IMG/VR virus record: IMGVR_UViG_3300042934_000861
Coordinates: 17,705-81,704 of that record
From: a virus
Strand: one strand, 5' to 3'
DNA length: 64,000 nt
The notes beneath the pieces were generated by a model. It did not search any database. It saw only the letters and a list, made by a program, of their open reading frames with translations, and was not told the DNA's origin. This document shows, one piece after another, positions 29,690 to 32,468 of this stretch (positions within the stretch are counted from its first letter, which is position 1; the number at the start of each line of letters is the position of its first letter). The position numbers and the translations under genes were made by a program.

Positions 29690-29771
29690 TTCATCATGCT
29701 GCATAAAGATATCAAAATCTACGGCGTAGTAAAAATTTAATCGTATAAATATGCAGAAGGGAGTGTTCTTA

Positions 29772-30257
29772 ATGCCAAGGGTAGTCAAGATACCAGTAGA
29801 AATAGATGCGGAGTTGTACGAACCAGGAATGGAAGATGGCTTTAAACCGGAAGATTTTTGCTATGCAGAATTCGGCATTGATTTGAGCGGGTGCTCTAAG
29901 CAAGAAAGCGCTGGTTGCGGTGGATGTAAGTGTTATCTTCCTTATATTTCAACTCTTGAGGGACCGCATTTTATCAGTCCTGGCGACTACATCATAACAG
30001 GTGTAGAAGGAGAGCGTTATCCTATCAAGCCTGGTATATATGCGAAAACATATCGCTTGGCTGGTGGAAGTCTAGCTGTTAAGGTCTGCTGGCAAGATGG
30101 TAGTGTTGCTGATTTTGAATGTAAGAGTGTTGTGGGTTTGGCTGACAGCATTGTTTTAAAAGGCGACGACGGTTATCAAACGACGATACCTAAAACAGAC
30201 ATTCGATATATAACGCAAAAAGAGAAGGTGAAGAAAGATGAACCCAATACTGCATGA
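29772..30257 (+). CDS. conserved phage protein (TLEG...PGDYII...GERYP motif) with Cys insert and C-terminal beta domain
   Basis: ISTLEGPHFISPGDYIITGVEGERYPIKPGIYAKTY. Confidence 0.75.
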   Translation: MPRVVKIPVEIDAELYEPGMEDGFKPEDFCYAEFGIDLSGCSKQESAGCGGCKCYLPYISTLEGPHFISPGDYIITGVEGERYPIKPGIYAKTYRLAGGSLAVKVCWQDGSVADFECKSVVGLADSIVLKGDDGYQTTIPKTDIRYITQKEKVKKDEPNTA

Positions 30258-30381
30258 GCGTTGCGGCATGTGTAGCCGGAAACTGAAGACGCAAAAGTCG
30301 AAAGAAGATGGTTGTGGACCGGTTTGCGCAAAGAAGGCTGCTTCTGAGCGAAAAGCAAGGGAGCAGGATGCTGATGGGTAA
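30238..30381 (+). CDS. DUF6011-like Zn-finger protein (47 aa, not in ORF track)
   Basis: RCGMCSRKLKTQKSKEDGCGPVCAKK; AAGGTG SD. Confidence 0.7.
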   Translation: MNPILHERCGMCSRKLKTQKSKEDGCGPVCAKKAASERKAREQDADG

Positions 30382-30529
30382 GCGACGTGAGTTGTGCTGC
30401 ACCAGGGAACAGTGTGCAAGGTATGCCCCTAATACCGGCTTAGGAAGATGGCCGGACAATAACCATGTTTGCCAAGTGAAAAGGAGTCCTAAGGTGGCGA
30501 ATTGCCCACACAGGACAAAAAAGCAGTAA
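30374..30529 (+). CDS. small Cys-rich protein
   Basis: GGGAG SD; followed by hairpin and T-tract. Confidence 0.45.
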   Translation: MGKRRELCCTREQCARYAPNTGLGRWPDNNHVCQVKRSPKVANCPHRTKKQ

Positions 30530-30556
30530 GCCGCTCGAATAATCGGGCGGTTTTTA
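30529..30556 (+). terminator. intrinsic terminator-like hairpin
   Basis: GCCGCTCGA-ATAA-TCGGGCGGT-TTTT. Confidence 0.7.
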
Positions 30557-30584
30557 CATTTCAAGTAAAAGGAGCGACAAGGGA

Positions 30585-30956
30585 ATGCATGTTAAGGTGA
30601 AACACGATTTACTGACTACAAAGTACACAGCGGTTTATCACGAACCGGAGATTGTTATGCAGTTTGGAGCCCCGCATTGCTTTACGGTAATTGCAAGTAA
30701 CGATGATGGCTCCGGCACACCATTAGCGGAGATTCACTTCCAGGAGGGGCCAATTAAAGAATTTGGCGTGAATGGGGTCTGCAATGAAGATTTGATCGCA
30801 ATGGTCATCTGCCGGTTGGAACATTTCCAGAAAGGGCCGTTTGCTTGCCGGGACAATGCCGTAGCAATCACAAAGCTTGAAGAGGGACTTCTTTGGCTGC
30901 GCAAGCGTACTATTGGCCGTGAGAATCGCGGCGTAGAGGGAACGTCAAACAAGTAA
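30585..30956 (+). CDS. tad1: Tad1-family anti-Thoeris/anti-CBASS sponge protein
   Basis: GAPH...IHFQEGP...GVCNEDL...RLEHFQKGPFACRDNAVAITKLEEGLLWLRKRT...RENRGVEGT matches the Tad1 pattern (FQxG...RL..FQ.GPF.SREN..A....EEAL.W..RR...R..R.V.GT). Confidence 0.88.
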   Translation: MHVKVKHDLLTTKYTAVYHEPEIVMQFGAPHCFTVIASNDDGSGTPLAEIHFQEGPIKEFGVNGVCNEDLIAMVICRLEHFQKGPFACRDNAVAITKLEEGLLWLRKRTIGRENRGVEGTSNK

Positions 30957-30971
30957 CAGGGAGGAATAACA

Positions 30972-31349
30972 ATGCAATGTCCAAAATGCCGGGGAGTTAA
31001 AATCTCTACCGAGAGAAGGCCAAATGGAAATAATATCTGCGGCAGCTGCGGCCATACGTGGCCCAATGGTCCGGCCGGGGCCGTAAGTGTAAATGCAAGC
31101 AAAGTAAGTTTAACCCAGGAAGATATCGACAAGGCCATCATAACTGAAGAATATATCAAAATGGGGAAGAAAACAGTAGTGTGTCTGTTAACCCTCAAGA
31201 ATGGTTTTGAAATTGTAGGTACCGGCAGTTGTGTGGATCCTGCTAACTTCAACATGGAGATGGGCAAGACATGTGCGAGGGAAGAGGCTGTTAACCAAAT
31301 CTGGAAGCTAGAAGGCTATCATTTGCAATGCCAGCATCCGGCCAGATGA
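30972..31349 (+). CDS. N4 gp49/Sf6 gp66 family protein (Acb4-like sponge) with N-terminal Zn ribbon
   Basis: TVVCLLTLKNGFEIVGTGSCVDPANFNMEMGKTCAREEAVNQIWKLEGY; N-terminal CPKC...CGSC. Confidence 0.85.
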   Translation: MQCPKCRGVKISTERRPNGNNICGSCGHTWPNGPAGAVSVNASKVSLTQEDIDKAIITEEYIKMGKKTVVCLLTLKNGFEIVGTGSCVDPANFNMEMGKTCAREEAVNQIWKLEGYHLQCQHPAR

Positions 31350-31434
31350 ACTGGCAATTCATTATGGACCGTAACGCATTAGGCCATCAATGATGGTTTA
31401 TATATTAAAGCAAATACAAGGAGTGGAAACAAAC

Positions 31435-31695
31435 ATGGAAACGATTAAAGTATCAGCAGGTTCAGTTCCAGGTAAAGTAGCGGGTGCCATTGCAGCATCA
31501 GTAAGAGAGCAAGGGCAGGCAACAGTACAGGGCATTGGTGCCGGTTCAGTTAACCAAGCGGTAAAAGCTATTGCTATCGCCCGGGGATTTTTAGCACCTC
31601 AAGGTGTTAACCTGGTGTGCGTCCCTGGTTTTGCGGACGTTGACATTGAGGGCGAAGAGCGCACTGCAATCCGGTTTACTGTAAAGAACGGCTAA
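31435..31695 (+). CDS. spoVS: stage V sporulation protein S
   Basis: METIKVSAGSVPGKVAGAIA...IGAGSVNQAVKAIAIARGF...IEGEERTAIRF. Confidence 0.96.
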   Translation: METIKVSAGSVPGKVAGAIAASVREQGQATVQGIGAGSVNQAVKAIAIARGFLAPQGVNLVCVPGFADVDIEGEERTAIRFTVKNG

Positions 31696-32012
31696 TGAGT
31701 GCCGGACTCTATTTATTATTGGCCCATTACCTTGCAGACTTCCCGCTGCAGGGTGATTTCTTGGCTAGTATGAAAGGGAAGAATGTATATCTCCTTGCTG
31801 TTCATGTGCTGATCTACACATTATTGATTGGTGCATGTTTGGACTTAATGGGGATATATGCGGTATGGAAATTGTGGCTTGTTGCGCTGTCTCATACTGC
31901 AATTGACTACTGGAAATGTCATTATGCACCAAAGGAGACTGCATTGACTGCAAGCCTGTATATCGATCAAGCCTTACATTTGCTTGTGTTGATGGTTTGC
32001 CTGTATCTTTAA
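31695..32012 (+). CDS. DUF3307 membrane protein
   Basis: LLAHYLADFPLQ...HVLIY...SHTAIDYWK...IDQALH. Confidence 0.9.
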   Translation: MSAGLYLLLAHYLADFPLQGDFLASMKGKNVYLLAVHVLIYTLLIGACLDLMGIYAVWKLWLVALSHTAIDYWKCHYAPKETALTASLYIDQALHLLVLMVCLYL

Positions 32013-32069
32013 AAGGTTGGCGGCTAAAGAATGGCCGTCTATTTTATTTAATGGGTGGTGGTCTGGGTG

Positions 32070-32468
32070 GTGACGTTAAATCAGGAAGAAGAGCAGTCGT
32101 TCAAGAAGTGGTACGGAAATACTATCACCGGCATTGCACTAAAGACTGGTTTTCAACTTGATCCTAACCCTGATAGCCCAGACCATCATTATGATTACCG
32201 GGGATTTTACAGGGCGCTGCAGGCAGGTGATCCTGCTGCAAAAACATCCGTTCAGTCTGATGGATTGGTGCATTTCACATCACCATGGAAACAGCCGGAC
32301 CATCCCACCTATAAATACAAGACGCTTCTTGATCTCTTCATACAAAGCAAGTATGATCCTGCGGCTTCTGACAATGAAGCACAGGAAGTCAGTAAGCATA
32401 GTATTGTGAATCCTGAGTTGGTTCAGGAGTATTTACGTTCAAATAATCGCAAGGCTGGAGGTGGTTGA
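32070..32468 (+). CDS. conserved hypothetical phage protein
   Basis: EEEQSFKKWY...NPDSPDHHYDYRGFY...HFTSPWKQPDHPT. Confidence 0.7.
   Translation: MTLNQEEEQSFKKWYGNTITGIALKTGFQLDPNPDSPDHHYDYRGFYRALQAGDPAAKTSVQSDGLVHFTSPWKQPDHPTYKYKTLLDLFIQSKYDPAASDNEAQEVSKHSIVNPELVQEYLRSNNRKAGGG

Follow-up and report, generated by a model that had tools for sequence, protein, structure and literature searches.

We describe two adjacent genes for putative sponge proteins, one of the Tad1 family and one of the Acb4 family, in a virus genome of the IMG/VR collection (record IMGVR_UViG_3300042934_000861). The stretch analysed, called the window, comprises 64,000 nucleotides (positions 17,705 to 81,704) and is the final 64 kb of the 81,704-bp record, which IMG/VR classes as complete with direct terminal repeats. 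Both genes lie, together with six others, in a slot between the gene of the large terminase subunit (terL) and the portal gene. Judged from sequence, the slot is probably a swap-prone site for accessory genes around a conserved SpoVS gene, in which the two sponges would sequester immune signals and the other six genes would be independent cassettes. We give this reading a probability of roughly 0.8.

The gene at 30585-30956 is, by its alignments, a genuine Tad1-family sponge gene. Its product matches the solved CmTad1 (8kbb) over residues 2-121 with E = 2.2e-38 and the CbTad1 entries 7uav and 8kbe-h with E of about 1e-14, and it is about 56% identical to CmTad1 (67/120 aligned positions, counted on the alignment). 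The residues that bind the ligands in the solved proteins are conserved. From the mutational data of Li et al. (10.1101/2023.11.15.567273), the binding of cA3 and other trinucleotides needs R88/T95 of CmTad1 (R90/T97 of CbTad1); these correspond to R89/T96 in the window protein. The residue numbering in that paper fits 8kbb being CmTad1. Likewise, the binding of gcADPR and 2'3'-cGAMP needs F82/N92/R109/R113 of CbTad1, and all four residues of this pocket are kept as F81/N91/R108/R112. Eleven residues are named there for the hexamer interface or base contacts (C87, R88, A91, M92, T95, K96, Q98, E99, M102, W103 and K106); 8 of the 11 are identical in the window protein, and the other three positions carry V for M, E for Q and L for M. 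The protein thus resembles CmTad1 (from a Clostridioides mangenotii prophage; 8KBB-8KBD) in length class (123 amino acids, aa), in its ligand residues and in most hexamer-interface residues. CmTad1 has affinities of 9.8 nM for cA3 and 20.1 nM for cAAG and binds 3'3'-cGAMP and cUA weakly (10.1101/2023.11.15.567273). The residues R57 and L119, with which CbTad1 (7UAV, 8SMD) contacts the guanine of 2'3'-cGAMP, are replaced by I57 and E118 as in CmTad1, and so weak binding of dinucleotides is expected for the window protein.

The next gene, at 30972-31349, encodes a homologue of Acb4, and its membership in this family is solid on the basis of the profile and structure matches. The PF13876 domain, which Chang et al. 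(10.1101/2024.12.30.630793) equate with Acb4, spans residues 47-119 (90.3 bits, cut-off 27, E = 1.1e-25), and a six-frame search of the genome, run as a positive control, recovers it at 91.1 bits. The solved Acb4 of SPO1 (9e4w_A), founder of the PF13876 sponge family, is matched over residues 56-116 with E = 2e-7. The original prediction's placement of Acb4 in the N4 gp49/Sf6 gp66 family (PF13876) therefore proved correct, from both this match and Chang et al. Six SPO1 ligand residues (K36, F48, E49, F62, N63 and K81) are identical in the window protein (K67, F79, E80, F93, N94 and K112). What distinguishes it from SPO1 Acb4 is a zinc ribbon of about 30 aa, with a linker, added at the N-terminus; the ribbon (CxxC...CxxC, residues 1-29) scores 24.1 bits with Zn_Ribbon_TF, which is below the cut-off. 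According to Chang et al., SPO1 Acb4 is a tetramer holding four molecules of 3'3'-cGAMP, 8/8 homologues tested bind this ligand, and those from phages of Gram-positive hosts do not bind c-di-AMP. Extensions on some homologues are mentioned in the available text of that paper, where a zinc ribbon is not described.

The adjacency of the two families is recurrent. From viral contigs, 71 Tad1 loci were collected, one of which (L092) is the Anaerospora prophage treated below, and a domain census was performed on 50 of the other 70 (L093-L142). PF13876 was found in 2 of the 50 records, each time directly upstream of Tad1 (L115 and L126), and both genes also occur in the slot of the nearest relative (L001), with a kinase gene between them.

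If the two proteins act as their solved homologues do, Tad1 would assemble into a hexamer whose six peripheral pockets sequester the Thoeris signal gcADPR and whose two central pockets sequester cA3 and cAAG, the trinucleotides of CBASS. The Acb4-family protein, with its zinc ribbon, would form a tetramer sequestering cyclic dinucleotides such as 3'3'-cGAMP. Because CmTad1 binds dinucleotides weakly, the two proteins would complement each other in the signals covered and could in this way let the phage evade immunity. The remaining six genes of the slot would be gained or lost independently as cassettes. Seven sponge families are listed in a 2026 review (PMC13712596), and stacking or fusion is known for Tad2-Acb4, Sequestin-Tad2 and Sequestin-Acb4 (Tal et al., 10.1101/2025.07.12.664507). 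The window resembles the fused or paired sponges of Tal et al. in that two unrelated sponge families stand side by side and would block several signals; the difference is that here Tad1 is combined with Acb4, as separate adjacent genes. In the literature as far as its texts were available, supplementary tables aside, we found neither a Tad1-Acb4 adjacency nor the zinc-ribbon extension, nor the links of Tad1 to PGDYG-like, RyR and 'YVG' domains and to DUF3307 that are described below.

The nearest relative of the phage is a prophage of Anaerospora hongkongensis DSM 15969 (portal 86% and terL 94% identical), a spore-forming member of the Negativicutes (Sporomusaceae). A portal query returned three distinct relatives, namely L001 (this prophage; L003 is identical to it), L002 and L004, and together with the window phage they make up the four related genomes to which the counts below refer. 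Nearly all genes of the window lie on the plus strand. The source phage stretch is present in two soil-metagenome DNA runs, and no RNA run containing it was found. The slot and its borders are as follows.

28265-29689 (+): terL, large terminase subunit and left border of the slot (PF04466 2.5e-44; phrog_3717 1.4e-82; 86-94% identical in L001, L002 and L004).
29772-30257 (+; open reading frame opens at 29751): ORF1, 161 aa, function unassigned, with an N-terminal PGDYG-like domain and a beta-rich tail.
30238-30381 (+): DUF6011 protein, 47 aa, with four cysteines (PF19474 7.3e-10); its first 20 nt overlap with ORF1.
30374-30529 (+): ORF3, Cys-rich, 51 aa, without a family; it starts just before the DUF6011 gene ends.
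30528-30553 (+): terminator-like hairpin in the ORF3-Tad1 interval, with 11 pairs (6 G-C) and a T-run behind it.
30585-30956 (+): Tad1 sponge, 123 aa, CmTad1-like (8kbb E 2.2e-38; phrog_2428 2.1e-44).
30972-31349 (+): Acb4-family sponge, 125 aa (PF13876 1.1e-25; 9e4w E 2e-7).
31435-31695 (+; open reading frame opens at 31390): SpoVS homologue, 86 aa (PF04232 5.6e-35).
31695-32012 (+): DUF3307 small membrane protein, 105 aa (PF11750 8.5e-17; phrog_2470 1.5e-21).
32019-32039 (+): terminator-like hairpin closing the DUF3307 insert, with 8 pairs (5 G-C) and a T-run behind it.
32055-32468 (+): ORF8, an orphan of 132-137 aa that overlaps the portal start at its stop.
32465-34714 (+): P22-type portal, right border of the slot (PF16510 1.2e-141).

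In phages, terL and portal genes are usually adjacent. Here 2,775 bp, filled by eight plus-strand open reading frames (ORFs), lie between the end of terL at 29689 and the start of the portal at 32465. The claim of about 2.8 kb and eight ORFs between the two genes was therefore accurate, both borders being confirmed by their Pfam matches (2.5e-44 and 1.2e-141). Some gene starts were revised from ribosome-binding sites (ORF1 to 29772, ORF3 to 30374, SpoVS to 31435, and ORF8 possibly to 32070). For example, the site AGAAGGGAG precedes the ATG of ORF1 at 29772, and the resulting length of 161 aa matches that of protein P0001. The Pfam scores of three neighbours exceed their gathering scores (SpoVS PF04232, 119.4 against 24 bits; DUF3307 PF11750, 61.8 against 23; DUF6011 PF19474, 38.7 against 26.6). 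All eight slot ORFs are real genes, since mismatches to the relatives concentrate at third codon positions. The counts at first, second and third positions are 31, 26 and 71 for ORF1; 2, 2 and 17 for DUF6011; 4, 2 and 23 for ORF3; 17, 11 and 53 for Tad1; 9, 7 and 32 for Acb4; 15, 6 and 42 for SpoVS; and 5, 8 and 38 for ORF8. This test covered seven genes, DUF3307 having no counterpart in these relatives. A scan of ten proteins of the region gave no Sequestin (PF21825) or Tad2 (PF11195) domain at E <= 0.1.

The content of the slot varies strongly among the four related genomes. In L002, SpoVS alone separates terL from the portal. The slot of L004 holds ORF3, SpoVS and a remnant of the 3' end of ORF8. 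That of L001 holds ORF1, DUF6011, ORF3, Tad1, an AAA_33 polynucleotide-kinase-like gene, Acb4, a 73-aa orphan, SpoVS and ORF8, and so the window slot equals the L001 set minus the kinase and the 73-aa orphan, plus DUF3307. By blastn, seven separately exchangeable blocks were delimited (29683-30369, 30370-30545, 30546-30942, 30951-31345, 31376-31696, 31697-32032 and 32033-32456), and of the two terminator-like hairpins, the one at 30528-30553 closes the block of ORF3 and the one at 32019-32039 that of DUF3307. Sponge genes are present in 2/4 genomes, SpoVS in 4/4 and ORF3 in 3/4. SpoVS and ORF3 are outside the sponge cassette, because both also occur in genomes without sponges.

The terL-portal junction is thus a swap-prone accessory slot, or diversity hotspot, with SpoVS as its conserved centre and the sponges as accessory genes. 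The original prediction saw the block as inserted in the packaging module, and this view is supported: relatives without sponges exist (L002 and L004). Anti-CRISPR loci of Mu-like Pseudomonas phages also lie inside a head-gene module. The slot shares with known phage hotspots and morons carrying anti-defence genes the variable genes between conserved flanks and the terminator-like hairpins at cassette ends; it differs from them in its location, the terL-portal junction of a Negativicute phage, and in its conserved central SpoVS. The concept of diversity hotspots holding anti-defence genes is set out in the available text of the EVADES preprint (10.1101/2025.06.06.658234).

Two further observations were made in these relatives. 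The kinase gene of L001 (L001:6114-6632, 172 aa; PF13671 7.9e-20, phrog_505) lies exactly between Tad1 and Acb4, and may represent, in the same slot, a counter-defence cassette of the RNA-repair type. Also, the last ~70 nt of ORF8 persist before the portal in relatives without ORF8 (window 32398-32468; L004:5117-5188; L002:7989-8001). Since the 3' end remains there, ORF8 was probably deleted in L002 and L004, with a deletion edge that preserves the translation signals of the portal.

In the census of Tad1 loci, two other gene types of the slot were found near Tad1. The profile of the wider family to which ORF1 belongs (alignment A1; ORF1 matches it with E = 5e-26) occurs in 6 of the 50 records, always within 2 kb of Tad1 and in four of them fused to it or directly upstream. 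It is fused to Tad1 in L093 (223-aa ORF, L093:3698-4369), directly upstream in L098 and L138, and also directly upstream in L126, there as a weak match of 22 aa; in L122 it lies 1.1 kb upstream and in L105 1.8 kb downstream. DUF3307 (PF11750) was matched in 3/50 records, and the two matches above the cut-off, in L098 and L132, lie directly downstream of Tad1. The unrelated contig L098 carries a PGDYG-like-Tad1-DUF3307 array (L098:3706-4738) that echoes the gene order of the window, and another unrelated contig, L132, carries a Tad1-DUF3307-portal array (L132:1071-4230) with the portal following at once. Other N-terminal modules also precede the sponges. A RyR domain (PF02026, 30.8 bits) heads Tad1 in L096 (36-695) and L104 (3163-3834), a combination not found in our literature search. 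A 65-aa 'YVG...W.PK..FE..Y' domain heads Tad1 in L111 (315-878) and L139 (251-823) and Acb4 in L115 and L126. No detectable relation between A1 and the N-domain of the L115 Acb4 was found by hhalign (probability 0.2). As for the packaging genes, terL or portal lies within 4 kb of Tad1 on the same strand in 22/70 loci, with Tad1 between both in L099. By a rough estimate, about a quarter of randomly placed genes in a 45-kb phage would lie so close by chance; the proximity is therefore recurrent and, on that rough estimate, not above chance.

ORF1 itself consists of a PGDYG-like small domain at about residues 1-95 and a C-terminal beta-rich tail of 60 aa, and its homologue in the A. hongkongensis prophage is 70% identical. 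The Pfam model PGDYG (PF14083) scores 19.3 bits on it, below the cut-off of 27, and is touched at E <= 0.001 by 35 of 120 long members of the A1 family. One PHROG family, phrog_419, combines an N-part resembling ORF1 with a C-part resembling Acb4, and it matches the N-part of ORF1 at 1.3e-16. The domain is also fused to Tad2 in protein P0003, and among the 120 long forms there are seven sponge fusions (Tad2 5, Sequestin PF21825 1, Acb2/Tad1 hairpin 1). At E <= 0.001 the family counts 21,039 clusters, and most members are solitary or fused to unrelated partners such as methylases, NTP pyrophosphatases, lysozyme and helix-turn-helix domains. Searches centred on the family covered 50 of 80 loci (L010-L059). 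Tad2 was found in 2/50 (one fused, one about 10 kb away) and the Acb2/Tad1 hairpin in 1/50, as a weak sub-threshold match about 5 kb away; Acb4 PF13876 was found in 0/50, with a positive control on the window genome that worked. The model of ORF1 (pLDDT 66) had no Foldseek match in the PDB at E <= 0.001, matched solely uncharacterised or 'PGDYG' phage proteins in BFVD, and reached a best Z of 2.4 in a wide VIA-align search, with a match on the C-terminal tail only, so that the N-domain was barely probed. A two-copy complex prediction for residues 1-100 scored 0.19 against a mark of 0.42 and is informative neither way. With Lockin, Acb5, Acb2 and TadIV-1 also in view, PDB sequences gave no match for ORF1 or ORF8, and a literature search for 'PGDYG' or 'PF14083' returned nothing. 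In the giant proteins P0167 (3,743 aa), P0168 and P0241, the C-terminal half of the PGDYG-like domain is matched 13 to 30 times in tandem; going by these matches, this small phage domain occurs in long arrays of repeats as well.

The remaining slot genes can be described briefly. The DUF6011 protein is 89% identical in L001. ORF3 has no match in Pfam, PHROG or NCBIfam, and it is 84% identical in L001 and 78% in the sponge-free L004 (mismatches by codon position 4, 2 and 23, and 7, 4 and 19, respectively). SpoVS occurs in 14 records of other phages, and the two contexts inspected, TS-12 and BCD7, are non-structural; in the present lineage it is a core gene outside the sponge cassette. DUF3307 is absent from L001, L002 and L004 and is an insertion specific to the window; the hairpin at its end lies inside the block 31697-32032 that is found in the window only. 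In 14 loci centred on DUF3307, tblastn found Tad1, an ORF1-type gene or Acb4 within 4 kb in none (0/14). ORF8 has one homologue among 5.8 billion proteins, P0047 of A. hongkongensis (90% identical), and no match in Pfam, PHROG, NCBIfam, PDB, phage tblastn or Atlas; its AlphaFold model has a mean pLDDT of 38 and is unusable for a fold search. Outside the slot, a lone minus-strand ORF of 178 aa with a hydrophobic N-terminal segment (25971-26507) lies just upstream of the packaging module, and the late region holds an ORF of 3,770 aa (51319-62631).

Several results weigh against the reading of the two genes as immune-signal sponges. The Pfam model of the Acb2/Tad1 hairpin scores 19.7 bits on the window Tad1, below its cut-off of 27. 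Other Tad1 proteins of the same clade are likewise below it (17.2-21.6 bits), and therefore the model is weak for this clade. The assignment of the gene to Tad1 in the original prediction is borne out by the matches to solved structures and by the conserved ligand residues, not by this model. In the Acb4 homologue, 4/10 of the SPO1 ligand residues are changed, two of them conservatively (V56 to C and I66 to M). The other two, Y57 (V88 in the window) and T70 (C101), are phosphate contacts, and for this reason the ligand range may differ from that of SPO1. Models for SMODS, TIR_2 and ThsB_TIR have no match in the one known lysogen genome, A. hongkongensis DSM 15969, and SMODS was matched in 3/40 genomes of the host order (the GTDB family of the host has 2 genomes). 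As for transcription, the slot genes lie on the same strand as terL and portal, and sigma-70-like sites show no excess (18 found against 16.3 expected from shuffles). Tad1 is immediately preceded by a strong terminator-like hairpin (30528-30553), and between the two no site resembling a promoter was seen. Any timing of the pair's transcription is therefore presumptive, and so is the co-expression with late structural genes that the original prediction proposed.

The absence of CBASS and Thoeris marker matches from the lysogen genome, the sporulation-type SpoVS among the neighbours and the four altered Acb4 residues would also suit a different use of the genes, in which Tad1 and Acb4 are kept for a non-immune purpose, such as buffering host c-di-AMP or housekeeping nucleotides in a sporulation-linked infection, or are decaying passengers. 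We regard this as very improbable. The mismatches of Tad1 (17, 11 and 53) and Acb4 (9, 7 and 32) point to purifying selection, every mutationally defined Tad1 residue is kept, and the Acb4 homologues of Gram-positive phages studied by Chang et al. (10.1101/2024.12.30.630793) do not bind c-di-AMP. A broader claim, in line with the original prediction, would make the whole eight-gene block a single anti-defence operon and count its six uncharacterised genes as new anti-defence factors co-expressed with the two sponges. The eight genes are indeed co-oriented and tightly spaced, with some overlapping stop and start codons; ORF1, DUF6011, Tad1, Acb4 and ORF8 are jointly present in L001 and jointly absent from L002; and ORF1-type domains and DUF3307 recur beside Tad1 elsewhere. 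This is nevertheless quite unlikely when set against the seven exchangeable blocks, the two hairpins that split the block, the presence of SpoVS (4/4) and ORF3 (3/4) in sponge-free genomes too, the lack of DUF3307 in L001, and an ORF8 with a single homologue and no usable model. The guilt by association on which the original prediction relied therefore holds in part: it gains from the recurrence of ORF1-type genes and DUF3307 beside Tad1, it fails for SpoVS and ORF3, and for DUF6011 and ORF8 there is no support beyond their co-occurrence with the sponges in L001.

A narrower alternative concerns ORF1 and its PGDYG-like relatives, which could be a further sponge-type or sponge-assisting module acting with Tad1, Tad2 or Acb4, so that the slot would contain a third signal-handling gene. 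It draws on the Tad2 fusion in P0003, the Tad1 fusion in L093, the 7/120 long forms fused to sponge families, the link between ORF1-like and Acb4-like parts in phrog_419 and the position of all 6/6 matches within 2 kb of Tad1 in the 50 Tad1 records; the fusion logic is identical to that behind the discovery of Sequestin (Tal et al., 10.1101/2025.07.12.664507). Against this stand the size of the family (21,039 clusters, mostly solitary or with unrelated partners), the 50 family-centred loci with Tad2 in 2, Acb4 in 0 and one weak hairpin, the two genes and the hairpin that separate ORF1 from Tad1 in the window, and the lack of a fold match for the ORF1 model. We consider it unlikely. The links of ORF1-type genes and DUF3307 to Tad1 hold for subsets, because the family-centred searches found almost no sponges nearby, and they remain leads. 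One might go further and take the N-terminal modules before sponges (PGDYG-like, RyR and 'YVG') as an unrecognised layer of the toolkit, made of ligand-binding sponges or of assembly or regulatory partners, with DUF3307 as a membrane-level companion. This is a speculative and rather doubtful extension. If it were true, ORF1 and DUF3307 would be working parts of the island, and DUF3307 could act, for example, against sponge-sensing defences.

Returning to the reading of a hotspot with a probable sponge pair among independent cassettes, the two sponges of the window are new members of the known Tad1 and Acb4 families, accompanied by two modest leads. They add a Tad1 and Acb4 pair from a phage of little-studied spore-forming Negativicutes. 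The comparison of relatives, which sorts the members of the cassette from bystanders such as SpoVS and ORF3, is a caution against guilt by association in hotspots. The recurrence of PGDYG-like, RyR and 'YVG' domains and of DUF3307 with Tad1 offers cheap candidates for fusion-guided discovery, the route behind Sequestin. Finally, the recurrent adjacency of Tad1 and Acb4 fits a picture of phages stacking sponges of complementary ligand range.

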